Shown: positions 7,064-44,052, numbered from the stretch's first letter. The stretch is 64,000 nucleotides of DNA from an uncultured beta proteobacterium (GCA_902825845.1 CADECM010000017.1:3077-67076); one strand, 5' to 3'. The notes: a model not told the origin generated them from the letters alone. Numbers and translations: made by a program.

Positions 7064-8590
7064 CTACCCCAGCCAGACCAGCATGGCCACCAGCGCCGTG
7101 CTCAGTGCGAACAACACTGCCAGCAAACCCAGCGACCGCTGCAACCGTTGTTGTTCGCCCTGCAAAAACGCCACTTGTTTTTGCAGCGGCGCCACGCGGT
7201 CCTCGCTCAGCGCACGATGGATCAACCGCGGCAGTTGCGGCAGTGTGCTGCCCCAGAACGGCGCTTCTTCCTGCACCTGCCGCAGCAGCGCGCGCCAGCC
7301 CACCTGTTCCGACATCCAGCGTTCGAGGTATGGTTTTGCGGTGGCCCACAAATCGAGGTCAGGATCAAGGTCGCGCCCAAGGCCCTCGATGTTGAGCAGG
7401 GTTTTTTGCAGCATCACCAGCTGCGGCTGCACCGCCATGTTGAAGCGGCGCGAGGTCTGAAACAGGCGCAGCAACAGCTTGCCGAACGAAATTTCCTTCA
7501 GCGGCTTGTCGAAAATCGGTTCGCACACGGCGCGGATGGCGGCTTCGAAATCCTCGACACGGGTGTCGGCGGGGATCCAGCCCGATTCGATGTGCGCCAA
7601 CGCCACGCGCCGGTAATCGCGGCGGAAAAACGCCAGGAAATTGCGCGCGAGATAGCTCTTGTCGCTGGGTGTCAGCGTGCCCATGATGCCGAAGTCCAGC
7701 GCGACGTACTGCCCGGCGGGCGTGACCAGGATGTTGCCCGGATGCATGTCAGCGTGGAAAAAGCCGTCGCGGAACACCTGCGCAAAGAAGATTTCCACAC
7801 CGGCGCGCGCGAGTTTCGGGATGTCGACACCCTGTGCGCGCAGCTCATCCACCTGCGATACCGGCGTGCCGCGCATACGCTGCATGACCATCACTTCGGT
7901 GGAGCAGTATTCCCAGAAAATCTCCGGCACCGCCAGCAGCGGCGATCCCGCGAAGTTGCGCCGCAACTGGCTGGCGTTGGCTGCTTCGCGCATCAGATCG
8001 AGTTCGTCATCGAGGTGGCGCGCGAATTCGGCCACGACCTCATGCGGTTTGAGGCGTTTCCCGTCGGACCATAGCCACTCCATGAGTGACGCCCCGGCGT
8101 CCAGCAACTGCAGGTCGCTGCGGATAACCTGCGCGATGTCGGGCCGCAGAATCTTGACCGCGGCTTCGCGACCGTCATGCAATTCCGCCACATGCACCTG
8201 GGCCACCGAGGCGCTGGCAAGCGCGTTGCGGTCAAAGCTGCGAAAAATCGCCGTCAGCGGTTTGCCCTGTTCGCGTTCGATGATCGTGGCCGCCTGATCC
8301 CCCGAAAATGGCGGCACCTGATCCTGCAGCCGGGCAAGCTCGTCGGCGATGTCTTCCGGCAGCAGGTCGCGACGCGTCGACAGGATTTGTCCGAATTTGA
8401 CGAAGATCGGCCCCAGCGCTTCCAGCGCATGGCGCAGGCGAACGGCGCGCGGCGCCGACAGGTCGCGCCAGAACAGCAGGACGCGCAATACGCGATGCAG
8501 GCCGCCTGCACGCCCGTGGCCGAGCAGGAATCCGTCGAGGCCGAAACGCAGCGCGACGGCGATGATTTTGATCAGGCGGAGCAGGCGCAT
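7064..8590 (-). CDS. ubiB: ubiquinone biosynthesis regulatory protein kinase UbiB
   Basis: 508 aa with [41 protein letters not shown], the ABC1/UbiB kinase-like core and C-terminal TM helices. Confidence 0.95.
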
Positions 8591-20804: not shown

Positions 20805-20832
20805 ATAAAGTAAAGTAAAATCAATGACTTAC
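20805..20832 (+). repeat. AT-rich A-tract/IHF-core motif copy S5
   Basis: ATAAAGTAAAGTAAAATCAATGACTTAC with an exact core AATCAATGACTTA. The ATG inside it is the FAH-family start codon (20824). Confidence 0.55.
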
Positions 20833-27859: not shown

Positions 27860-29851
27860 TTACGGCTTGGCACCGTCAGCGTCAGACAAGTCGTGCGCCA
27901 GTACCGCCAGCGCCTCGCGCCAGTCGCCATCGCTTGACTGACGGTACACCGGAAACCCCGGGAACCACGGTGAAAACCGCCCTGCGGCCATCCAGCGCCA
28001 TTCTGGGGGCGCGGGCACCAGCACGCGCGCGGTTCTGCCGGCGCACGCGCGCAAATGCGTGTTGGTATTGCTGACGCCCACGTATTCGTCGATCACCTCC
28101 AGCAGCGCCAGCATGCCTTCGAGGTCTTCGTTCAGATCCGACACATCGTGCACGCGCGCGCCGGCGGCCTGTTCCAAGGCGGCGATTTCGCCGGGTAGGG
28201 GCTTGCGCTGCAGGGCGAGCAAGGTGCCGGGAAACCCCTTCAGCGCCGTGCCCAACGGCGTGATGTCGAGCGTCTTGTAGAGCAGCCACGAGCCGGCGCC
28301 CTGTTCGCTGGGCGGCGTGCCGCCGCGCCAGGTTATGCCCAGATACGGCGGCGGACCCAGCGCGGCAAGCCGGGATCGAATGCTAGCTAATTGATTTTCC
28401 AGTGATTTTATTCGAGTGCTCGGCACGGGCAGTGGCGAATACAGCGGCTGTGTCCAGGGGAAGGCCCAGCGCGCGTTGGCGCTTTCCGCGGCGCTCAGTG
28501 ACAGCGGCGCGGCGGTTTCGGTATCGCCGTTGCTTGCCGCCAGTGCATGGGGCAAGTCGCCCACCAGAATGACCGCGTCGCCCGCGGGGGGCGGCGCTTC
28601 CGCGTCGATGACGGCGGCAAGCTCGGGCAGGCGTCGCAGCAGTGACGCGATTTTGTCGCTTGCGCGGTAGGTGATGCGCGCGCCGCGCGCCACCAGTTGC
28701 CGCGCGTAGCGCAGGAAAAACAATTCATCGCCCAGGCCCTGTTCGCGCAGCACACAGATGTGCATGCCCTTGAGGCTGGACGGCAGCGTGCGCGTGAGCG
28801 TGATGCCGGGCAACTTGTTCTGGAATACGGCGAACGCCGGCCGTTGCCGGTACTGCGCCCAACCCTCGGCAAGAAAACCATACTGCAGAAACAGGGTGCC
28901 CATCAGTTGTTGCAGCGCCGGCAGTTGCGGCGTGGCAGCCGCCTGCTGCGCGATGATCCGCAGCGCGTCGTCGAACGCGCCGGTCTCGCACAGCTTGGCG
29001 GCGTAGCTCAGGGCGAATTCGGGTTGGTCGGGCGCCAGCCGTGCCGCCACACCGTAATGCCGCGCGGCCTCGTGCATGCGGCCGCGTGCATTATAGGTAT
29101 CCGCGAGCAGCGCCTGCGCCTGCGGTTCGTCTGGCGCCAGCTCGATGAGTTGTTTGCAGGCCGCTTCGGCGTGGTCGAAACGGCCCTGATCGATCAGCAC
29201 GGAAACGAGATTCATGCGCGCAGCGAGAAACTGCGGCGCCTCGCGTATGCAGTGTTCATAGGCTTGCGCCGCGTCGTCAAAGCGCTGCGCCGCGTGCAGC
29301 GTGCGGCCAAGCCCGTTGCGCGCGTCCAGAAACGCCGGTTCCAGCACCAGCGCCTTGTTGAATGCGTCAATCGCCGGCGTGAACGCGCCGCTTTCGCGCA
29401 GGACGTTGCCGAGGTTGTACCAGGCCAAAGTATGTTGGGGAAAGCGCGCCACCACCCGTTCCAGCAGCGGCCGCGCTTGCGCGAAATTTCCCTGCATCGC
29501 CAGCGCATTGGCGGCGCCCAGCATGAACGCCGGTTGCGCCGGCTCAAGCCGCTGCGCCTGGCGGAACGCGGCGCCCGACTCTTCATAGCGGCCAAGATCG
29601 AACAGCGCTTGCGCCAACGCGCCGGTCAAGCCGGCATTGCGCCGGGACTTTGCCACGGCCTGCTGCAAGTGCGGCAGTGCCTGTGCCGCGTCGCCCCCCT
29701 CCAGCAGCGCGGCGCCCAGCATCGCCAGCAACTGCGGATCAGCGGGCGCGAGTGTCAGGGCTTGCCGGTAAGCATCCGCCGCGGCAGCGAAATCGCCGGC
29801 CTGACGCGCGCGCATGCCCATATCCACGTATCGGTCAAGGATGGAAGCCAT
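27860..29851 (-). CDS. TPR-repeat protein fused to a GT9-like domain (second paralogue type)
   Basis: 663 aa with ~9 TPRs. The C-terminus has CVLREQGLGDELFFLRYA, LGITWRGG and DEYVGVSNTNTHLRACAGRTARVLVPAPPEWRWM...FPVYRQ. Confidence 0.75.
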   Translation of the reverse strand: MASILDRYVDMGMRARQAGDFAAAADAYRQALTLAPADPQLLAMLGAALLEGGDAAQALPHLQQAVAKSRRNAGLTGALAQALFDLGRYEESGAAFRQAQRLEPAQPAFMLGAANALAMQGNFAQARPLLERVVARFPQHTLAWYNLGNVLRESGAFTPAIDAFNKALVLEPAFLDARNGLGRTLHAAQRFDDAAQAYEHCIREAPQFLAARMNLVSVLIDQGRFDHAEAACKQLIELAPDEPQAQALLADTYNARGRMHEAARHYGVAARLAPDQPEFALSYAAKLCETGAFDDALRIIAQQAAATPQLPALQQLMGTLFLQYGFLAEGWAQYRQRPAFAVFQNKLPGITLTRTLPSSLKGMHICVLREQGLGDELFFLRYARQLVARGARITYRASDKIASLLRRLPELAAVIDAEAPPPAGDAVILVGDLPHALAASNGDTETAAPLSLSAAESANARWAFPWTQPLYSPLPVPSTRIKSLENQLASIRSRLAALGPPPYLGITWRGGTPPSEQGAGSWLLYKTLDITPLGTALKGFPGTLLALQRKPLPGEIAALEQAAGARVHDVSDLNEDLEGMLALLEVIDEYVGVSNTNTHLRACAGRTARVLVPAPPEWRWMAAGRFSPWFPGFPVYRQSSDGDWREALAVLAHDLSDADGAKP
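28383..28413 (-). repeat. AT-rich motif copy S7 embedded in the TPR-GT9 CDS
   Basis: CTAGCTAATTGATTTTCCAGTGATTTTATTC; the coding strand reads cga ata aaa tca ctg gaa aat caa tta gct agc = RIKSLENQLAS. Confidence 0.45.
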
Positions 29852-29860
29852 AGATCATAT

Positions 29861-29888
29861 ATAAATATTTGATAATAAGAACTTTTTT
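29861..29888 (-). repeat. AT-rich A-tract/IHF-core motif copy S8
   Basis: ATAAATATTTGATAATAAGAACTTTTTT. Its reverse complement contains an exact TATCAAATATTTA. It lies 10 nt upstream of the TPR-GT9 start codon. Confidence 0.5.
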
Positions 29889-30397
29889 ACTTAACCGCGC
29901 ATGCTGGCAGGGCGTCGGGACAGCGCACGATTGGCGCATGTTAATGGAAATTGTTCTGCATATTAGCAGTCGCATGGCGCGATTCTGCAGGCGCGTCTAC
30001 GCATGGGTGTGCGCGCTCGGGAAGTCTTGGTGCTGTGCCGGCGGAGCGCGACCGCACCAATTTTTCCGCGCGTTGCAGGGATGCGGTGCTGAAAATATGC
30101 GCATTTCATACGCGCGCCGTGTCAGCACAACGTTGAGTCGCGCGCCCTGCGCAAACAGCATCGCCCCTGTGCCAAGGTCCACACCACCACCCTTTGTCCG
30201 GCGAAAACGCCTCCGTGCGCGCGGGGGCGCGTGCCGGCTGGCGGCTGCTGCACAGACCGGCCGGCCGGCACCATTTCACACAACACTTACGAGAATTTAT
30301 GCCTAAGCGTAGTGCGCAAATGGCTGGAGTCGATCTACCGCTGATACGTAGTAACGACTTCGATTTACATCAAGTGAGTGATCGCATGCTAGTTGCT

Positions 30398-30428
30398 TAA
30401 CCTATTGAAAATAAATTAATTTTTAACT
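30398..30428 (-). repeat. AT-rich motif copy S9 (porin-1 upstream, distal)
   Basis: TAACCTATTGAAAATAAATTAATTTTTAACT. Confidence 0.5.
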
Positions 30429-30484
30429 ATTGCCGCTCAATAATTGGCCAGAAATTCGCGTCAAACGGCCACTACGTGATTGGA

Positions 30485-30515
30485 TAAAACTTTATCTTAT
30501 TAATCAACTACTTAC
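30485..30515 (+). repeat. AT-rich motif copy S10 (porin-1 upstream, proximal)
   Basis: TAAAACTTTATCTTATTAATCAACTACTTAC with an exact AATCAACTACTTA. Confidence 0.6.
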
Positions 30516-30634
30516 AAAATAATACGAAATACCATAATACGTAATATGTGTTGCGTATATAACACTAGAATGAAAAATATGTTGTTTTTAAACCACTTTT
30601 TCGCATGAAAATGGGTAAATAATATGAATTAATG

Positions 30635-30759
30635 TTGTTATTTGGATTTCGAAATTTCATACTTGATTCGTCCTTTACGCAAAAGTAAGGCGAAGCGCTC
30701 GCGAGGATGGTCGGGTCGGACCACTCGGGGGCAGACATAAAATGACAGAGGAGTATGAA
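30635..30759 (+). promoter_or_regulatory. predicted sigma70 promoter plus conserved ~90-nt 5'UTR of porin 1
   Basis: TTGTTA (30635-40), a 17-nt spacer and CATACT (30658-63). The leader TTCGTCCTTTACgcaaaaGTAAGGCGAAGCGCTCGCGAGGATGGTCGGGTCGGACCACTCGGGGGCAG...GAGGAG is nearly identical in copy 2. Confidence 0.55.
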
Positions 30760-31974
30760 ATGCAGAAAAAGCTAATTGCAGTGGCCGTCGGCAGTGCGCT
30801 GTCCGCATTCGGTGCCGTCCCGGCGCTGGCGCAAAACGCAACCGTCAACATCTACGGAACGTTCTATGGTGAGTATTCCAGGATTAACAATGGTGCCGCA
30901 TCGGCCACAGAGCCCTATCAGAACTACGACCATTTCCAGAATCCCGGTTCGCGGATTGGTCTACGTGGCGAAGAAAAGCTAGGCGGGGGCCTGTCGGTGT
31001 GGTTCCAGTGCGAAAGTTCCATCGACTATCGCGGCAATAACAACAAGCCCGATGACAATGCTGTGGCCAATAATCACTGGTGCTCGCGTGACAGTGCGCT
31101 GGGCCTGAAGGGTCGTTTCGGTAACGTGTTCTATGGCCAATGGGGCACCCCATGGAAGAATGTCAACAGCAGGGGCAACGTCGGCGCGAACGATACCGGT
31201 GTGTTCGGCACTGCGCATCTTATCGCCGGCAGTTCATCCACTTTCGGCATTTCGGCACCAAACGGCCCTGGCGTCAGCACCACCAACCGCGTTTCGCCGG
31301 GTATTTTCCGCCGCCGCCAAAGCAACCTGTTCAGCTACGAAACGCCGAGCTTCGCCGGCTTCAAGGTCATGGGCGCGGTTACCACCCGCAATCACGCATC
31401 ACGGGCAACCAGTGCGCAACTCAAAACCCGTCTGTGGTCAGTCGGTGCACAGTACGCCAATGGCCCGATCTATGTCGGCGCCGCATACGAGAAGCACAAC
31501 GATTTCTGGAATCTCGGCACAGCTGCAGCGCCGATCGGTGGCGACGATAAAGGGTGGACGGTTGCGGCAAGCTACACCCTGCCCATCCGCCTGAAAATTG
31601 GCGGCAGCATCCAGCAAATGAAAGAGGAACAAGCGCTGGGCCGTGAGACCAAGATCACCACCTACCACATCGGTATTGACTGGATGATTTCAGGTCCGCA
31701 TGGCGTGCGTGCGGCTTATACCCGCGCGGGGGATGTCAAAGGGCCTTCCGGTCAGGCGCACAACGCGCGCCCCGCTGCGAATCCGGATAGCAAAGCGGAC
31801 ATGTGGCAGATTCGTTACGTGTATGCGTTGTCCAAGCGCACCGAGTTCACGGCGGGCTACTCACGAACCAACAACCGGGCCAATGCCACGTACGAAACCG
31901 GCGGCTCTGATTCGACGCAGTTTAGGGGATCGGATTCCAGCGCATTTGCTATTGCCATACGGCATAGCTTCTAG
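30760..31974 (+). CDS. Gram-negative trimeric-type porin, paralogue 1
   Basis: MQKKLIAVAVGSALSAFGAVPALA/QNATVNIYGTFYGEY (signal peptide plus the typical betaproteobacterial porin N-terminus), alternating beta-strand pattern and a C-terminal ...AIAIRHSF (terminal Phe). The ATG at 30760 has GAGGAG 7 nt upstream. Confidence 0.9.
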   Translation: MQKKLIAVAVGSALSAFGAVPALAQNATVNIYGTFYGEYSRINNGAASATEPYQNYDHFQNPGSRIGLRGEEKLGGGLSVWFQCESSIDYRGNNNKPDDNAVANNHWCSRDSALGLKGRFGNVFYGQWGTPWKNVNSRGNVGANDTGVFGTAHLIAGSSSTFGISAPNGPGVSTTNRVSPGIFRRRQSNLFSYETPSFAGFKVMGAVTTRNHASRATSAQLKTRLWSVGAQYANGPIYVGAAYEKHNDFWNLGTAAAPIGGDDKGWTVAASYTLPIRLKIGGSIQQMKEEQALGRETKITTYHIGIDWMISGPHGVRAAYTRAGDVKGPSGQAHNARPAANPDSKADMWQIRYVYALSKRTEFTAGYSRTNNRANATYETGGSDSTQFRGSDSSAFAIAIRHSF

Positions 31975-32149
31975 AGCCCGTTATGAACTTCCGTGAAATC
32001 GAAAATCGTCTCCCTCATCCCAACTCTTGTCCCGAAGGGAGAAGGGCTCTTCACCCCTCGCCCTCCGGGAGATGGGCAGGGGTGAGGGAAAACGAATCGC
32101 CATAAACGGTTGATGTTGAATAATATTTCTGAAGTTCATTACAGGCTCT
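31973..32149. mobile_element. MITE-like 177-bp insertion with 19-bp terminal inverted repeats
   Basis: AGAGCCCGTTATGAACTTC (31973-91) versus the reverse complement of GAAGTTCATTACAGGCTCT (32131-49), 17/19 matches. It is absent from the equivalent position after porins 2 and 3, and its interior holds REP-like GC hairpins (TCACCCCTCGCCCTCCGGGAGATGGGCAGGGGTGA). Confidence 0.65.
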
Positions 32150-32540
32150 CGTAACAGCGCCATCACAGCGTGTTTGAACGGGCGCTCCGGTGCCCGCTCT
32201 TCGCGCGAATTTCCGGGCGGCTGGAAATCGGTGCCCCGGCGGAAGCCTGGGTTTGAACGAAATTGCCAAGGCCAATCTCGATCGCGTCCCGCGAAAAGAG
32301 CATTGCGGCTATGCCAGGAGTGCAAACCACCGCTCTGTGTTTGGTGCAAACGTGACCGCGCAGGCAGGGTCAAGCGCCGGCTGGCAGTGGCCGCGCAGTG
32401 CGGGCGTCAGGTGCAGCTTCACGAATTACTTACGAGGACTTGTGCTTAAGCATAGTGCGCAAATCACTGGAGTCGTTTCTCTGTCGATACGTAGTAACGC
32501 CCCCGTTTTGCGTCAGGCCGCTGATCGCACGTTATTTTTA

Positions 32541-32571
32541 TAAGATATTGAATAACATGAAGTTTTTATAG
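32541..32571 (-). repeat. AT-rich motif copy S11 (porin-2 upstream, distal)
   Basis: TAAGATATTGAATAACATGAAGTTTTTATAG. Confidence 0.45.
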
Positions 32572-32626
32572 AAATTCCCTCAACGCTGAGAGCGATATTC
32601 GCGTCGAATGGCCACTACGTTATCGA

Positions 32627-32657
32627 CTAAAATTTTTACCTATAAATCAATTACTTA
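32627..32657 (+). repeat. AT-rich motif copy S12 (porin-2 upstream, proximal)
   Basis: CTAAAATTTTTACCTATAAATCAATTACTTA with an exact AATCAATTACTTA. Confidence 0.6.
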
Positions 32658-32777
32658 AAAATTTATACGATAAACCACAATACGTAATATATGTTGCGTA
32701 TATAATACAAACTACTAAAATATGTTGTGTTTTTACAACTTAACCTCATAAAAATTGGCTAAAAATATGAATTAAAG

Positions 32778-32900
32778 TTGTTATTAGGCGGTGGCGCTTT
32801 CATACTCAATTCGTCCTTTACGTAAGTAAGGCGAAGCGCTCGCGAGGATGGTCGGGTCGGACCACTCGGGGGCAGACATAAAATGACAGAGGAGTATGAA
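32778..32900 (+). promoter_or_regulatory. predicted sigma70 promoter plus conserved 5'UTR of porin 2
   Basis: TTGTTA (32778-83), a 17-nt spacer and CATACT (32801-06). The leader is almost identical to copy 1. Confidence 0.55.
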
Positions 32901-34112
32901 ATGCAGAAAAAGCTAATTGCAGTGGCCGTTGGTAGTGCGCTGTCCGCATTCGGTGCCACCCCGGCGCTGGCGCAAAATGCAACCGTCAACATTTACGGGA
33001 CGTTCTATGGTGAGTATTCCCGCATTAACAATGGTGCCAAATCGGCCACCGAGCCCTATCAGAACTATGACCATTTCCAGGCACCCGGCTCGTCCATCGG
33101 CTTCCGCGGCGAAGAAAAGCTGGGCGGCGGCCTGTCGGCGTGGTTCCAGTGCGAAAGTTCGACGGATTACCGCGGCGCCAACAACTCGTCGACCAACAGT
33201 CAGACCGGCAGCTACTGGTGCTCGCGCAATAGCGCGCTGGGCCTGAAGGGCGGTTTTGGTAACGTCTACTACGGCAACTGGCAGACGCCGTTTACCCGTA
33301 TTAACTCTGCGGCTAACACCGGTTCGAACGACACTGGCGTGTTCGGTAACGCCCATCTGATGACAGGCACGTCATCCACCTTCAGCGTAGGTGCCCCCAC
33401 CACCGGCAACGTCGCCACGGCCCAACGCGTGTCGCCCGGCGTATTCCGCCGCCGCCAGAGCAACTCATTCAACTATGAGACGCCGAGCTTTGGCGGTTTC
33501 AAGGTGATGGCCGCAGTCACCACCCGCAACTACGCATCGTCGGCAACCAGTGCGCAACAAAAGGCCCGCCTGTGGTCCATCGGCGCGCAGTATGCCAATG
33601 GTCCGATCTTCGTCGGTGCGGCGTATGAGAAGCACGACAACTTCTGGAACATCGGCACCGCTGCGGCGCCGATCGATGGCGATGACAAAGGGTGGACGGT
33701 AGCAGCAACCTACACCCTGCCCATCCGCCTGAAAATCGGTGGCAGCCTCCAGCAAATGAAAGAGACTCAAGCGCTGGGCCGCGAGACCAAGATCACCACC
33801 TATCACATCGGCATAGACTGGATGATTGCAGGTCCGCACGGGGTGCGTGCGGCGTATACCCGTGCGGGGGATGTCAAAGGGCCTTCCGGTCAGGCGCACA
33901 ACGCGCGCCCTGCCGCCAATCCGAATACCAAAGCGGACATGTGGCAGATTCGCTATGTTTACGCGCTGTCCAAGCGTACTGAAGTCACGGCGGGCTACTC
34001 GCGCACCAACAACCGCGCCAATGCGACGTACGAAACCGGCGGCTCCAACTCGACGCAGTTTGCAGGGGCGGATTCCAGCGCATTCGCGGTGGCGTTCCGT
34101 CACAGATTCTAA
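32901..34112 (+). CDS. Gram-negative trimeric-type porin, paralogue 2
   Basis: Same signal peptide and N-terminus as paralogue 1, ending AVAFRHRF. Differences cluster in predicted loops (e.g. ANNSSTNSQTGSYW versus NNNKPDDNAVANNHW). Confidence 0.9.
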   Translation: MQKKLIAVAVGSALSAFGATPALAQNATVNIYGTFYGEYSRINNGAKSATEPYQNYDHFQAPGSSIGFRGEEKLGGGLSAWFQCESSTDYRGANNSSTNSQTGSYWCSRNSALGLKGGFGNVYYGNWQTPFTRINSAANTGSNDTGVFGNAHLMTGTSSTFSVGAPTTGNVATAQRVSPGVFRRRQSNSFNYETPSFGGFKVMAAVTTRNYASSATSAQQKARLWSIGAQYANGPIFVGAAYEKHDNFWNIGTAAAPIDGDDKGWTVAATYTLPIRLKIGGSLQQMKETQALGRETKITTYHIGIDWMIAGPHGVRAAYTRAGDVKGPSGQAHNARPAANPNTKADMWQIRYVYALSKRTEVTAGYSRTNNRANATYETGGSNSTQFAGADSSAFAVAFRHRF

Positions 34113-34137
34113 TAAAACAGTAATCCCGCAGCATATT

Positions 34138-34167
34138 CAAACGGGCGCTTCGGCGCCCGTTTTTTTG
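34138..34167 (+). terminator. rho-independent terminator of porin 2
   Basis: AAACGGGCGCttcgGCGCCCGTTTTTTT. Confidence 0.85.
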
Positions 34168-34610
34168 TGCGCGAATTTCCGGCACCCGGAAATCGGCAAC
34201 CGGCCGACAGCCAGGTTGTGATCGAATTCGCCCAGGTCAATCACAACCGCATCCGACGCAAACGTGTGTGCGCGACGCAAGCCTGGCATCTCGCGCTGTC
34301 AATCCTCACGACGTAGTTTCGTCCAGGCGTTGTGCCGCGCGGGTCGCATGTGATCCACCATAGCCTATGCCGCCTTGACCATCCATGTCGTATCCTCGCC
34401 TGGCTCACGACTGCGCTTGCAGGACCGGCGGCGCGTGTATGAGGCCGCTGTTTTCCGCCAATACCGCGCCCGCCATACGAGTCGCTGCGAGCTTGGATGC
34501 CAACGCACGGGCTTGTCCGTATGTCTTTTCCGCCACCTCGGAAGCATCTGGCGCGCTGAAATGTAGTCCTTGGTTCACCTGATGACTGGGCCAGAGCGCA
34601 CAATTCATTA

Positions 34611-34640
34611 TAACCTATTGATTTTAAATATATTTTAAGA
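34611..34640 (-). repeat. AT-rich motif copy S13 (porin-3 upstream, distal)
   Basis: TAACCTATTGATTTTAAATATATTTTAAGA. Its reverse complement has an exact AATCAATAGGTTA. Confidence 0.6.
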
Positions 34641-34672
34641 AAACCAGGTCGTGATGCCTGTATTCGCACTAC

Positions 34673-34706
34673 TATTTTTTAATTCTTTTTATATCAATAA
34701 CTTACG
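34673..34706 (+). repeat. AT-rich motif copy S14 (porin-3 upstream, proximal)
   Basis: TATTTTTTAATTCTTTTTATATCAATAACTTACG with an exact TATCAATAACTTA. Confidence 0.6.
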
Positions 34707-34818
34707 ATAATAATAAGTCGAAATACGTACATAGTGTTGCGTATCTCCAACGAAATGGCCTTTTTGTTGCTTTTTGGCAACACGTATCTTTCTCTACGAT
34801 GTTTCTCGCACCTAAACA

Positions 34819-34944
34819 TTGAGCTTGGTTTTTCGCGCTTGCATACTGCATTCGTCCTTTACCAATGAGTAAGGCGAACCGCTCGCGAGGAGAAGTCAGG
34901 CTGGACTACTTGGGGGCAAAGTTGAACACACAAAGGAGAATTAC
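34819..34944 (+). promoter_or_regulatory. predicted sigma70 promoter plus conserved 5'UTR of porin 3
   Basis: TTGAGC (34819-24), a 17-nt spacer and CATACT (34842-47). The leader keeps TTCGTCCTTTAC..GTAAGGCGAA.CGCTCGCGAGGA and a hairpin with a compensatory change (AGTC..GACT versus GGTC..GACC). Confidence 0.5.
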
Positions 34945-36150
34945 ATGCAGAAGAAGCTAATTGCAGTGGCCGTCGGCGGTGCGCTCGCCGCGATCGGCGC
35001 CGCTCCGGCGCTGGCGCAGAACGCGACCGTGAACGTGTACGGAACATTCTACGGCGAGTACTCTCGCCTTAATAATGGCGCCCAGACGGGTACTGGCAGT
35101 CAGTATCAGACCTACGACCACTTCCAGAACCCCGGTTCGGAAATCGGTTTCCGCGGCGAAGAAAAACTGGGTGGCGGATTGTCGGCGTGGTTCCAGTGCG
35201 CAAGCTCGCTCGACTATCGCGGTGGCGGTAACACCTCGTCCACCAACAATCAGGCTGGCAGCTACTGGTGCTCGCGTAACAGCGCGCTGGGTCTGAAGGG
35301 CGGCTTCGGTAATGTCTTCTACGGCAACTGGCAGACCCCGTGGACCCGTATTAATTCCGCGGGCAATGTCGGCTCCAACGACACCGGTGTGTTTGGTAAC
35401 GCCCACCTGATTGCCGGCACGTCGTCGACCTTCGGCATCGCGGCACCGGGACAGAACATCAATACGCTGTCTCCCGCCGTATATCGCCGCCGTCAGAATA
35501 ACCTGTTCACCTACGAGACGCCCACCTTCGGCGGCTTCAAGGCGATGGGTGCGGTCACCACGCGCAACTACGCTTCCGCGGCGACCAGCGCGCAACTCAA
35601 GGCCCGCCTGTGGTCCATCGGCGCGCAGTTTGCCAATGGCCCGATCTTCGTCGGCGCAGCTTATGAGAAGCACGACAACTTCTACAACCGCGGCACCGCC
35701 GCCCTGCCGAATGCCGGCGACGACAAATCGTGGACCGTGGCAGCCGCCTATACTCTGCCTATCCGGCTGAAACTCGGCGGCAGTGTGCAGCAGATCAAAT
35801 CGGACGCCGTGCTGAATGCGCAGACCAAGGTAACGACGTTCCACTTTGGTATTGACTGGATGATTGCGGGTCCGCATGGCGTGCGTGCAGGCTATTCGCG
35901 TGCCGGCGATGTCAAGGGTCCGGTGGGTACTGCGATGAACGCCCGTCCGGCCGCCAACGCCAACACCAAGGCGGACATGTGGCAGATTCGCTATGTTTAC
36001 GCGCTGTCCAAGCGTACCGAAGTCACGGCGGGTTACTCGCGCACCAACAACCGCGCCAACGCGACGTACGAAACCGGTGGATCCAACTCGACGCAGTTCC
36101 CGGGCACGGATTCCAGCGCCATCGCTGTTGCTCTAAGGCATTCGTTCTAA
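34945..36150 (+). CDS. Gram-negative trimeric-type porin, paralogue 3
   Basis: MQKKLIAVAVGGALAAIGAAPALA/QNATVNVYGTFYGEY..., ending AVALRHSF. Confidence 0.9.
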   Translation: MQKKLIAVAVGGALAAIGAAPALAQNATVNVYGTFYGEYSRLNNGAQTGTGSQYQTYDHFQNPGSEIGFRGEEKLGGGLSAWFQCASSLDYRGGGNTSSTNNQAGSYWCSRNSALGLKGGFGNVFYGNWQTPWTRINSAGNVGSNDTGVFGNAHLIAGTSSTFGIAAPGQNINTLSPAVYRRRQNNLFTYETPTFGGFKAMGAVTTRNYASAATSAQLKARLWSIGAQFANGPIFVGAAYEKHDNFYNRGTAALPNAGDDKSWTVAAAYTLPIRLKLGGSVQQIKSDAVLNAQTKVTTFHFGIDWMIAGPHGVRAGYSRAGDVKGPVGTAMNARPAANANTKADMWQIRYVYALSKRTEVTAGYSRTNNRANATYETGGSNSTQFPGTDSSAIAVALRHSF

Positions 36151-36176
36151 GAAGACTGCCAAATCGTTGTACCTTC

Positions 36177-36204
36177 AAACGGGCGCTTCGGCGCCCGTTT
36201 TTTA
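36177..36204 (+). terminator. rho-independent terminator of porin 3
   Basis: AAACGGGCGCttcgGCGCCCGTTTTTT, identical to the porin-2 terminator. Confidence 0.85.
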
Positions 36205-36242
36205 TGGGGGTGTCACGGGGCGGCGCTACGCCCGCCTGTCCG

Positions 36243-38699
36243 CTACTCGCCCAGCATTTCCCGGTACAAGGCCTCCAGGTTACGCGCAAACGCGGGGGTG
36301 TCAAACAGCGGCGCGCTGTCGCGGGCCAGTGCGAGGCGGTCACGGAAGGCCTGCAGCACCGCGGGTTCGAGCGCAAGCCGCAGCGCCAGCGCTTCATAGT
36401 CGTGCAGGTTGGTGGTGATCAGGTCCGCGAGATTGGCGGCGGTCAGCACGCTGCCGCTCACGCGCGCGGCGAAGGTGTCGGCGCACAGTCCCACCGCAAG
36501 GCAGCCGCACCACAGGCCGTCGCTCAGCGTGGTGTGCGAGGTATACGGCCAGGTGTCGAGCGCCAGATCGGCCACGCGGTAACGCGCGAGGTGCAGCGCG
36601 TACGGCATGCGTGGTGCAAATACCAGCCGCTCCGCCGCGATGCCTTGCGCGCGCGCGGCTGCGGCGAGGTTCTGTTTCGCCGGTGCGTTGCTTTCCACCA
36701 GCCACAGCACGCTGCCCGGCACCTTGTCGAGCAGGCGCATCCAGACTTCGAACACATCCGGCGTGATCTTGTAGGTCTGGTTAAAGCAGCAAAAAACGAA
36801 TCCCTGCGCCGGCAAGCCGTAAGCCTCGCGCGACAGCGGCTCCGCGATCTCGCGCTTGCGGTCATTGGGCTGATAACAGTGCGGCATGCGTAACACGCGT
36901 TCGGCACAACTGCTTTCTTCGCCGTCGCGGATGATATAGGGATCGGCGATCAGGTAATCCACGAAGGGCGCGCCGGTGGTGCCGGGATAACCGAGCCAGG
37001 TCACCTGTATGTCGCACGGCCGATGCGCCATGATGGTCAGCCGGTCGCCCACGGTGTACCCCTTGATCTCGATCAATATGTCGATTCCGTCGCGCCGAAT
37101 GCGTTCGGCGGCGATGTCGTCCGGATCCCACGCGATGTCGACGAAGTGCTCCACCGCGCGCATGATGCGCAGCCGCATGGGGCTTGCGTCCTGCGGCCCA
37201 TAGGAATACGCGAATATCTCGTATTGCCCGCGGTCGTGCTGTTCCAGCAGATCCGCCACCAGGTACGCCGCCGCGTGTTCCTGAAAATCGGCTGATAGAT
37301 AGCCGATGCGCAGGCGCCGGCCGGCGTATTGGGCTGAACCGGCACCGTGCCTGCGGGGCGGGGTTGCGATCGCCCCATAGCGGGCCGCGGCCCAGCGCGT
37401 GGTGTACTGCAATTGCTGCCGCGGCGTGATGGGTTCGCACAACAGCCAGAACGGACTGCCCAGCATGGCGTCGCTGTCGAGCAAGGGCGTCATGCGGGCC
37501 CACGCCTCGCGCCAGCGCGGCCAATCGCAAATCTGGCGGTACTGGTTCGTCAACTGGCCCAGTATTTCGCCGTCACGCGTGCGCTCATAGCTGCGTTCGA
37601 GCAGGGAAATCGCCTCATCGAATCGCTGGCGGTAGAGCAGGAGGTTGGCGATCAGCGTGCAGGCGGCGGTCGAATCGGGCGCGCGCTCGATCCAGCGCTG
37701 TCCAACCGTTTGTGCTTCGTCCAGCTGCCCGACTTCGAACAGGGCGTTGGCCAACGCCTGCAGCGCCGCGACGTTGTCCGGTTCCGCGTCCGCGACAAAG
37801 CGCATATGCGGCAACGCTTCACTGGTGCGGCCCAGCGCGAGACAGCTCAGGTAGAGGCCCTCGCGCGTGCCCACATCGTCCGGCGCCGCGCGCAGCGCCG
37901 CAAGAAACTGCTCGCGCGCCTCGCTGTGCCGGCCGAGCACGGACAGGGACCTGCCGGCGCCGCAGGCGGCCGCCGGCATGCCGGGCGCGGCGGCAAGGGC
38001 ACGGTGGTGGCACGCCAATGCCGCTTCGAAATTCTGCTCCCGCTCGCGCACCACGCCCAGGTTCACCCAGGCTTCGGCATGCTGCGGCTGCGCGCGCGCG
38101 GCGCGTTCAAACCAGGCAGCCGCGGCGGCCAGATCGCCCTGTTCAAGGTCGATGACGCCGAGGTTAAACAGGGCATCGGGGTGATTTGAAAATTGCTGGA
38201 CGATCAGCTCGAACTCCGCGCGCGCGCCGGCGGTGTCGCCGGCGCGGTAGCGTGCCTGGCCAAGGTTGACCCGGATATCCGGTTCCCGCGGCGCCAACTG
38301 TGTCGCGCGCTGCAACTCGGCAACCGCTTCCGGCACGCTGCCCAGATTCAGCAACGCCATGCCGAGGCGCATGAACACGATGGCGGGCGCGCGCGGTATC
38401 GCCGCGGCACGGCGCAGTACGCCGGCGGCGTCGGCGAAACGTCCCAGCATCAGATAGGCAAGCCCGAGTCCGTCCAGCACCATGCCGTTGCGCGGATCGG
38501 GGAGCAGCGCGCGCTCGAGCGGTTCAACCGCCGTTGCCGCATCGCCGGCGGCCATGTGCGCCATACCTTTGATCCACAGCGCCTGCGGATGTGCGGGTGT
38601 GCGGCGCAGTATGGATTCGACAATGGCGAGGGCGCCATCAATGTCGCCATTCTGCAAACAGGCCTGCGCTTTATCGAACTGTGCGTCCTGCCGGGGCAT
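36243..38699 (-). CDS. TPR-repeat protein fused to GT41 (O-GlcNAc transferase-like), second paralogue
   Basis: 818 aa with ~11 TPRs. The C-terminus has LRIGYLSADFQEHA, VTWLGYPGTTGAPFVDYLIADP, FVFCCFNQTYKI and DTWPYTSHTTLSDGLWCG. Confidence 0.85.
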   Translation of the reverse strand: MPRQDAQFDKAQACLQNGDIDGALAIVESILRRTPAHPQALWIKGMAHMAAGDAATAVEPLERALLPDPRNGMVLDGLGLAYLMLGRFADAAGVLRRAAAIPRAPAIVFMRLGMALLNLGSVPEAVAELQRATQLAPREPDIRVNLGQARYRAGDTAGARAEFELIVQQFSNHPDALFNLGVIDLEQGDLAAAAAWFERAARAQPQHAEAWVNLGVVREREQNFEAALACHHRALAAAPGMPAAACGAGRSLSVLGRHSEAREQFLAALRAAPDDVGTREGLYLSCLALGRTSEALPHMRFVADAEPDNVAALQALANALFEVGQLDEAQTVGQRWIERAPDSTAACTLIANLLLYRQRFDEAISLLERSYERTRDGEILGQLTNQYRQICDWPRWREAWARMTPLLDSDAMLGSPFWLLCEPITPRQQLQYTTRWAAARYGAIATPPRRHGAGSAQYAGRRLRIGYLSADFQEHAAAYLVADLLEQHDRGQYEIFAYSYGPQDASPMRLRIMRAVEHFVDIAWDPDDIAAERIRRDGIDILIEIKGYTVGDRLTIMAHRPCDIQVTWLGYPGTTGAPFVDYLIADPYIIRDGEESSCAERVLRMPHCYQPNDRKREIAEPLSREAYGLPAQGFVFCCFNQTYKITPDVFEVWMRLLDKVPGSVLWLVESNAPAKQNLAAAARAQGIAAERLVFAPRMPYALHLARYRVADLALDTWPYTSHTTLSDGLWCGCLAVGLCADTFAARVSGSVLTAANLADLITTNLHDYEALALRLALEPAVLQAFRDRLALARDSAPLFDTPAFARNLEALYREMLGE

Positions 38700-43594: not shown

Positions 43595-43629
43595 ATAAAA
43601 CAACGGAGACCAAACTTCGGTCTCCGTTG
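43595..43629 (-). terminator. rho-independent terminator of the micro-ORF
   Basis: The minus strand reads CAACGGAGACCgaagtttGGTCTCCGTTG followed by TTTTAT. Confidence 0.75.
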
Positions 43630-43646
43630 AGCTAAAGCGACTGCTA

Positions 43647-43709
43647 TTACTTCTTAGCTGCTTTTTTCTTAGCTACTTTTTTCTTTGCTGCTTTTTTCTT
43701 CGCTGCCAT
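43647..43709 (-). CDS. 20-aa Lys/Ala-rich basic micro-peptide (below ORF-track cutoff)
   Basis: Minus strand: AAAGGAGAC RBS, 5 nt, then atg gca gcg aag aaa aaa gca gca aag aaa aaa gta gct aag aaa aaa gca gct aag aag taa = MAAKKKAAKKKVAKKKAAKK. A terminator lies 18 nt downstream. Confidence 0.55.
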   Translation of the reverse strand: MAAKKKAAKKKVAKKKAAKK

Positions 43710-43941: not shown

Positions 43942-44052
43942 CGGATGGTGCTGGCGTTTGTACCATTCGTACAACACGAATGCACAGTTCGTTCACGCGC
44001 GATGCAATGATAGTGTTGCATGCGTACAACGTTACTGCGCGTGCATGGCGCA

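Follow-up and report, generated by a model that had tools for sequence, protein, structure and literature searches.

Porins set the permeability of the outer membrane and are among the most abundant transcripts and proteins of Gram-negative bacteria, and what is understood of their regulation comes mainly from Enterobacteria. A tandem porin operon was reported as the most highly transcribed gene of Accumulibacter (PMC4796919). The present analysis concerns a DNA stretch of 64,000 nucleotides (CADECM010000017.1:3077-67076), hereafter the window, which is part of a contig of ~63% GC from an uncultured betaproteobacterium and contains three tandem genes of the Porin_4 family, with a protein identity of 76–82% between copies. 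Each porin gene is preceded by an island of ~330 bp with a GC content of 29–40%. An earlier reading, made without database searches (hereafter the sequence-only reading), had noted upstream of each porin promoter an inverted pair of A/T-rich motifs of the integration host factor (IHF) type, followed by an operator-like box. The question raised by this locus is whether this layout is a regulatory architecture common to the three porins, as was then suggested, or a by-product of their duplication. Conservation in orthologous loci supports a shared module. We assign a probability of roughly 0.6 to the reading that every porin gene has its own copy of an ancestral cis-regulatory module, in which an IHF-shaped upstream region would be combined with a dimeric regulator.

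Paired IHF-type sites upstream of the porin genes

Using the 13-bp IHF core consensus WATCAANNNNTTR, a convergent pair of sites was located upstream of all three porins (Table 1), in agreement with the sequence-only reading. Four of the six cores match the consensus exactly and the other two have one mismatch. In each pair the minus-strand site lies upstream of the plus-strand site and the A/T-rich 5' flanks are directed inward, so that the two sites indeed face each other. The spacing from core start to core start is 104, 104 and 81 bp in copies 1, 2 and 3, respectively; the offsets of 87, 86 and 62 bp given earlier hold if the plus-strand sites are taken to begin at their A/T-rich flank, and do not hold from core to core. 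The -35 hexamer of the predicted promoter is separated from the proximal core's end by 120, 120 and 114 bp, and among the earlier values (120, 121 and 113 bp) the one for copy 1 was reproduced while those for copies 2 and 3 needed correction. The position of the pair relative to the promoter had also been called fixed. This is true within the window; in relatives, however, 79–82 bp separate the proximal site from the -35 element, compared with 114–120 bp here.

Over 23 sites, the AT content averages 79% in the 22 bp 5' of the core and 62% on the 3' side, and TTTAA usually adjoins the core. An IHF site is recognized by a core match, an A/T-rich 5' element and an excess over chance with purifying selection, and all three were found here. 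The assignment to IHF, which is presumably the protein bound, is supported by the fit of the 13-bp core together with its A/T-rich 5' element and by the conserved TTTAA flank. Note that neither ihfA nor ihfB was found within the window, which is uninformative with respect to IHF binding.

The window contains 10 exact matches to the consensus, whereas 0.65 are expected. In the individual upstream regions 1–2 exact matches were observed versus 0.02–0.04 expected from local dinucleotide shuffles, and a convergent pair (at most one mismatch in each site, 75–110 bp apart) arose in 0.25–3% of the shuffles per region.

Conservation of the site pair in related loci

In a scan of genome contigs the best porin matches showed no more than 45% identity, and therefore close orthologues were fetched from metagenome assemblies; they were found through a protein search, and their contigs were then looked up. 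In six syntenic loci (L035, L036, L037, L040, L041 and L043) a single porin lies between the same two TPR genes. In this region L038 and L039 are identical to L037, and L042 is identical to L041. The porins of the six loci are 66–70% identical, and in each of these loci both sites are kept in convergent orientation, 83–85 bp apart, every site being exact or having one mismatch. Thus, the comparison with single-porin species, which had been put forward as a check of the proposed layout, came out in its favor. In addition, an exact pair with a distance of 84 bp precedes the second tandem porin of L033 (L033b), and the motifs and their geometry, which exceed chance, are conserved in single-copy orthologues as well as in independent tandem copies.

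In the orthologue alignment the mean pairwise identity is 0.80 for both cores, 0.35 for the spacer between the sites, 0.98 for the box and 0.83 for the promoter. The specified positions of the IHF cores are near-invariant among orthologues: TAA....TTGAT is invariant, while the neighboring A/T-rich DNA varies.

The upstream regions of copies 1 and 2 show 75% identity over 622 bp and therefore are not independent evidence. BLAST aligns the upstream region of copy 3 with those of the other two copies at the promoter and leader only; in the multiple alignment, the islands that copy 3 has in common with the other copies are both IHF cores, the box, TGTTG, the -35 and -10 elements and the leader. 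Because single-copy orthologues retain the pair across a non-conserved spacer, the paired layout is, judging from these alignments, a module under selection and not a duplication artefact. The alternative named in the sequence-only reading, that the similarity merely reflects recent duplication, is contradicted by the orthologue comparison. The module is old and real and was duplicated intact along with the porins, so that the tandem duplication took the whole control region with it.

At other gene boundaries there are further exact matches to the IHF consensus that have the same TTTAA/A-tract flank, both in the window (16146, 19435, 20819, 60392 and 29862) and in relatives (24 and 12840 in L035, 11997 in L036 and 5435 in L043). 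The sites at 20819 of the window and at 24 of L035 both read AATCAATGACTTA, and a site recurs at a matching gene junction in L035, L036 and L043. The apparent positional conservation of some of these sites suggests a nucleoid-protein motif that is widely used in the lineage.

A predicted palindromic operator between the site pair and the promoter

The box of the sequence-only reading was an operator-like 21-mer, ATACGTA...TGTTGCGTAT, placed between the proximal site and the promoter. The sequence ATACGTAMATRTGTTGCGTAT was found inside all three ranges given for it (30537–30558, 32680–32701 and 34723–34744). The 21-mer as the unit did not hold up: orthologues conserve TGTTGCGTA only, and the block reads TGTTGCGTACTCRCAACG there. 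TGTTGCGTA is the left part of an 18-bp palindrome, TGTTGC-N6-GCAACA, which was identified as the operator unit from porin loci at 25–45% identity and has the sequence forms TGTTGCAAATGTGCAACA and, clade-specific, TGTTGCGTACTCACAACG. The ATACGTA arm occurs in this window only. A left-arm palindrome, ATACGYAA-N6-TTGCGTAT, was set aside as lineage-specific, since it is real in the three window copies and absent from every orthologue.

The palindrome (at most 2 mismatches) was found in 22 of 28 distant betaproteobacterial porin loci, 150–330 bp upstream of the start codon, with 0.02 expected per interval of this kind, and 16 of 24 palindrome sites have a distance of 167–184 bp. Perfect palindromes occur in L001, L003, L012, L013 and L015 (twice in the last one), and the extra tandem porin paralogues in L005, L008, L010 and L013 are preceded by further perfect palindromes. 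The porin loci concerned are among L001–L032 and L044–L046, and in most of those examined the palindrome lies ~170–185 bp before the start codon of the Porin_4 gene. This palindrome, common to most of the betaproteobacterial porin loci examined, is a concrete bait for its regulator and the part most worth following up.

Transcription was assumed to start 7 nt after CATACT, and all positions relative to +1 depend on this. With this start, the palindrome center falls at -81.5 in all close orthologues (8 promoters), and the window copies have it at -80.5 to -81.5. Operators of class I activators are two-fold symmetric and centered near -61.5, -71.5, -82.5 or -92.5. Each window copy has two boxes ~30 bp apart, whereas relatives ancestrally have one; the box nearer the promoter had been overlooked in the sequence-only reading. 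The extra box displaces the IHF pair outward, and the proximal site is centered at -156 to -162 in the window versus -121 to -124 ancestrally. Since the duplication the operators have diverged: copy 3 has perfect ones, those of copies 1 and 2 are degenerate, and this hints at differential regulation of the paralogues. The helical phase of the pair was also considered. The spacings of copies 1 and 2 (104 bp) and of the orthologues (84 bp) differ by 20 bp, or about two turns; absolute phasing is not claimed, as the bend center is uncertain and copy 3 is off by 3 bp.

In the literature searched, no description of the palindrome, of a regulator that would recognize it or of betaproteobacterial porin operators was found, which is absence of evidence only. 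A metagenome scan with TTGTTGCNNNNNNGCAACAA was dominated by chance hits to unrelated organisms, with a porin downstream (at 182–186 bp) in 3 of 120, and the scan therefore says nothing about the regulon.

A related sequence had been reported at 44010–44027 and is present; the intergenic TGTTGCATGCGTACAACG at 44014–44031 has exactly the arms of the orthologue box and is a possible extra operator, which is not statistically distinguishable from chance, as ~5 palindrome matches with 2 mismatches are expected in the window. The orthologous contigs end before this position. Nearby, at ~43640–43709 on the minus strand, there is a tiny Lys/Ala-rich open reading frame (ORF), MAAKKKAAKKKVAKKKAAKK, which resembles a histone H1-like tail and has a good ribosome-binding site. 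A hairpin is located just past its stop codon (~43605–43630), and TGTTGCATGCGTACAACG lies ~300 bp upstream of its start codon.

Predicted promoter and leader

The sequence TTGAGC-N17-CATACT is near-invariant among orthologues and was retained as a putative sigma-70-type promoter solely because of this conservation.

The porin leader of ~90–120 nt is strongly conserved in the window copies and in L033–L043. It contains a hairpin CUUUAC...GUARGG near the 5' end, an invariant GCGCUCGCGAGGAG block and a second stem, with loop insertions of variable length in some lineages and little covariation. It may be an ompA-like leader that stabilizes mRNA or a target of small RNAs. An Rfam scan of positions 29800–36400 gave sub-threshold chance matches only (mir-188, Leu leader and Atu_C3), with no known RNA family on the leader.

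Proposed module and alternative explanations

These characteristics allow us to propose the following order of elements. The module would begin with a distal IHF-type site on the minus strand, followed by an unconstrained spacer of ~84 bp (in copies 1 and 2, 104 bp), a plus-strand proximal IHF-type site, the TGTTGC-N6-GCAACA operator (one ancestrally, two in the window), a sub-consensus sigma-70-type promoter TTGAGC/TTGTTA-N17-CATACT and a structured leader of ~90 nt. A dimeric helix-turn-helix regulator would occupy the palindrome near -81.5, a class-I-like position, and would tune, by activation or repression, a promoter that, judged by its consensus match, is intrinsically weak. IHF or its orthologue in this lineage would bend the DNA at ~-123 and ~-206 (in the window at ~-160 and at -240 to -266), and the bending could compact the upstream region and bring upstream DNA or proteins close to the operator and RNA polymerase. 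Looping or wrapping of the upstream DNA is plausible.

A number of observations weigh against this proposal. Both IHF sites are located upstream of the operators and none lies between operator and promoter, which is not the classical geometry of IHF-assisted looping. The spacing of 81 bp in copy 3 departs from the 104 bp of copies 1 and 2, and in these two copies the distal sites carry an identical mismatch and both boxes are degenerate. The -35/-10 element agrees with the consensus at 8 of 12 positions and is not called by a simple promoter scan, and the +1 position is an assumed one. In the relatives, L034 has the distal site and has lost the proximal one, and the paralogue L033a has lost both while keeping the promoter and leader. 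In L045 (50% porin identity) the distal site survives 20 bp from the start of the TPR gene and the proximal site is gone; in L036, L037, L040 and L041 the distal core ends ~10 bp from the TPR start codon.

Since the distal site adjoins the TPR start codon and outlasts the proximal site in L045, it may serve the divergent TPR gene too, or instead. In a stricter version, the distal site would be part of the promoter or leader of the TPR gene, or a boundary element between divergent promoters, and the elements acting on the porin would be the proximal site and the palindrome alone; the distal copies before paralogues 1–3 would then have been carried along passively in a duplication unit with its beginning at the TPR start. 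The proximity to the TPR start in the five loci just mentioned and in the window (29862) agrees with this, as does the persistence of the distal site without its partner in L045 and L034. A related motif is also found beside the start of the divergent gene at 41–44% porin identity, and bases like those of the TPR start region (GATCGCAT) flank the three distal sites of the window. We nevertheless regard this version as rather unlikely, because in window copy 3 and in L033b the exact site and the distance to its partner are kept without a TPR gene, though the surroundings have diverged beyond BLAST detection, and because the inter-site spacer shows no conserved TPR promoter. Window copy 2 likewise keeps the distal site with no TPR gene adjacent, and a distal-like motif is present in tandem copies of L012 and L013; the distal site thus does not appear to be simply tied to the TPR gene.

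It could also be that the motifs are not IHF sites and that the A/T-rich island acts through intrinsic curvature, UP-element contacts with the alpha subunit of RNA polymerase, an H-NS/MvaT-like silencer or another protein sharing the ATCAA...TTA pattern. A GC content of 29–40% over the whole 330-bp island, within a 63% GC genome, is what silencer or UP-type DNA typically shows, IHF was assigned by consensus alone, and in nadA and Pu the IHF sites are flanked by A/T-rich alpha-subunit contacts (PMC2791445). The observed conservation is base-specific, however, with the adjacent A/T-rich DNA being variable; the core and the 5' A/T element together form the full architecture of an IHF site, and the extended motif is also found between other genes of the window and of orthologous loci, as one would expect of a global nucleoid protein. 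An explanation that dispenses with IHF is thus improbable. Recent tandem duplication, or chance in A/T-rich DNA, would suit the similarity of copies 1 and 2; as an account of the layout it is very improbable in view of the six single-copy orthologues, which have the sites with a non-conserved spacer, of copy 3, which is alignable to the other copies just at the motif islands, promoter and leader, and of the low numbers of exact matches in shuffles. Finally, IHF sites upstream would fit a sigma-54 promoter with IHF-assisted enhancer looping, and in copy 3 the sequence TGGCCTTTTTGTTGCT at 34756 has the GG-N10-GC invariants and 2 mismatches to the consensus. Copies 1 and 2 (at least 4 mismatches) and the orthologue alignment lack this element, which derives from the TTGC of a palindrome arm and is followed ~60 bp downstream by the conserved TTGAGC-N17-CATACT; a sigma-54 promoter was rejected as highly unlikely, as the -24 GG/-12 GC element is not conserved. 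The preferred reading remains an ancestral module of paired IHF-type sites and a palindromic operator. Here a conserved promoter architecture in an uncultured betaproteobacterial clade was revealed by sequence alone.

Organization of the locus

The features of the locus are listed in Table 1. A counterpart of the divergent TPR gene adjoins the porin in all syntenic orthologues (L035, L036, L037, L040, L041 and L045). The same terminator hairpin, AAACGGGCGCTTCGGCGCCCGTTT with a T run, was found after copies 2 and 3 (34139–34162 and 36174–36203) and after the orthologue porin (9338–9363 in L035). Copy 1 is followed by just a degenerate remnant of it without a T run (~32180–32210), and therefore read-through from copy 1 into copy 2 is possible.

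The G+C-rich spacer stretches before the A/T-rich islands are repeated between copies (30141–30390 and 32283–32530; 34129–34262 and 32166–32297) with 72–75% identity. A tblastn search with the two flanking TPR proteins against the three inter-porin spacers revealed no remnant coding sequence, so these spacers are not obvious gene fragments; the ORFs inside them had no Pfam match. A long imperfect G+C-rich inverted repeat between porin copies 1 and 2 (32013–32087) resembles an extragenic palindrome of the REP (repetitive extragenic palindromic) type. It gave a sub-threshold chance match to mir-188, and a similar-looking element precedes the L006 porin.

In the relatives, the gap between the porin and the TPR/GT41 gene carries varied toxin–antitoxin cassettes (BrnT/BrnA, HigB, ParE/Phd, PIN/VapC, MazE and FitA), located at 7969–8563 in L036, 5679–8466 in L037, 5311–5922 in L040, 4051–4669 in L041, 5467–6884 in L045 and 3690–4384 in L046. 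This gap looks like an insertion hotspot. The extra porin copies of the window sit between the same two TPR genes.

Table 1. Genes and predicted regulatory elements of the porin locus (window coordinates; centers are relative to the assumed +1).
Feature	Position	Strand	Remarks
TPR-repeat gene (663 aa)	27860–29851	-	Pfam TPR families; divergent from the porins
Exact IHF-consensus site TATCAAATATTTA	29862–29874	-	TPR start codon 10 bp away; corresponds in position to the ancestral distal site
Copy 1 distal IHF-like core TTTCAATAGGTTA	30398–30410	-	1 mismatch; center ~-266
Copy 1 proximal IHF core AATCAACTACTTA	30502–30514	+	Exact; center ~-162
Copy 1 upstream box TGTTGCGTATATAACACT	30549–30566		Left arm intact, right arm degenerate; center ~-112.5; core of the box of the sequence-only reading
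Copy 1 promoter-proximal degenerate box TGTTGTTTTTAAACCACT	30580–30597		Center ~-81.5; corresponds in position to the orthologue operator
Copy 1 predicted sigma-70-type promoter TTGTTA-N17-CATACT	30635–30663	+	Predicted from sequence and conservation
Copy 1 conserved leader	30670–30759	+	~90 nt; 5' hairpin
Porin paralogue 1 (Porin_4)	30760–31974	+
Copy 2 distal IHF-like core ATTCAATATCTTA	32541–32553	-	1 mismatch
Copy 2 proximal IHF core AATCAATTACTTA	32645–32657	+	Exact
Copy 2 upstream box TGTTGCGTATATAATACA	32692–32709		Center ~-112.5
Copy 2 promoter-proximal box TGTTGTGTTTTTACAACT	32723–32740		Center ~-81.5
Copy 2 predicted promoter TTGTTA-N17-CATACT	32778–32806	+
Copy 2 leader	32813–32900
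Porin paralogue 2 (Porin_4)	32901–34112	+
Copy 3 distal IHF core AATCAATAGGTTA	34611–34623	-	Exact; center ~-237
Copy 3 proximal IHF core TATCAATAACTTA	34692–34704	+	Exact; center ~-156
Copy 3 upstream box TGTTGCGTATCTCCAACG	34735–34752		Homologous in sequence to the orthologue box; differs from the palindrome by 2 mismatches; center ~-110.5
Copy 3 perfect palindrome TGTTGCTTTTTGGCAACA	34765–34782		Center ~-80.5
Copy 3 predicted promoter TTGAGC-N17-CATACT	34819–34847	+	Hexamers identical to all orthologues
Copy 3 leader	34854–34944
Porin paralogue 3 (Porin_4)	34945–36150	+	Paralogue closest to the orthologues; conserved terminator hairpin 3'
TPR/GT41 gene	36243–38699	-	Far flank of the porin array
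Possible extra operator TGTTGCATGCGTACAACG	44014–44031		Intergenic

Comparison with known systems

In Escherichia coli, IHF sites were reportedly described by the Freundlich laboratory (~1988–1992) in the regulatory regions of ompF, ompC and ompB (ompR-envZ). The long A/T-rich upstream regions of ompF and ompC combine OmpR sites, which are tandem direct repeats, with IHF sites, and IHF presumably gives the upstream DNA its shape, in ompF also that of the distal OmpR F4 loop. The window porins are similar to these in being general porin genes with IHF sites in the upstream DNA, recognized here by consensus. However, the OmpR sites are direct repeats, whereas an 18-bp inverted repeat was found here, and the orthologue alignment contains no conserved direct-repeat array of OmpR boxes upstream of the -35 element. 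In addition, the E. coli porins belong to the Porin_1 family and the window porins to Porin_4. The arrangement in the window, a convergent IHF pair upstream of the operators in Betaproteobacteria, differs from ompF and ompC and is known from sequence alone.

The nadA gene of Neisseria meningitidis is, like the window porins, a betaproteobacterial outer-membrane protein gene in which IHF is combined with operators (PMC2791445). IHF was footprinted there at -103 to -65; the operators are those of the dimeric repressor NadR, distal and proximal A/T-rich alpha-subunit contacts flank the IHF site, and a looping model was proposed (PMC2791445). The nadA promoter has a single IHF site between two operators, whereas the window has two IHF-type sites, both of them distal to the operators. 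Moreover, nadA is phase-variable via a TAAA tract, and its operator serves a MarR-family repressor and is unrelated to the window palindrome.

In the narG promoter of E. coli, NarL (at ~-195 and -89), IHF and FNR were found to act, and IHF bending is thought to work together with upstream-bound NarL (PMC4549865). The likeness consists in a sigma-70 promoter, a putative one in the window, with a regulator site, which lies near -89 in narG (PMC4549865). In narG, IHF is located between two regulator sites; in the window no operator was seen upstream of the IHF pair, and both boxes (~-81 and ~-111) are downstream of both IHF sites. In the more distant relatives L015, L046 and L002, two palindromes 88–89 bp apart flank an A/T-rich stretch, with an IHF-like sequence in it in L015 and L046, and the arrangement of these last two loci is closer to narG than that of the window. 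At the Pseudomonas putida promoter Pu, IHF positions UP-like A/T-rich elements (-79 and -104) for contacts with the alpha subunit of RNA polymerase (as summarized in PMC2791445). Pu is sigma-54 dependent and uses an enhancer-binding protein, whereas no conserved -24/-12 element was found here.

Thus, the principle is not new, because IHF sites near the promoters of porins and other outer-membrane proteins are already known. A wider proposal, which we put forward tentatively and with some doubt, is that TGTTGC-N6-GCAACA could be the operator for a regulator of the major general porin across Betaproteobacteria, at a nearly constant ~170–185 bp from the start codon, acting in one uncultured clade together with a phased convergent pair of IHF bends that would wrap the upstream DNA. 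If this is true, it would amount to a control logic for porins that differs from the enterobacterial EnvZ-OmpR paradigm.

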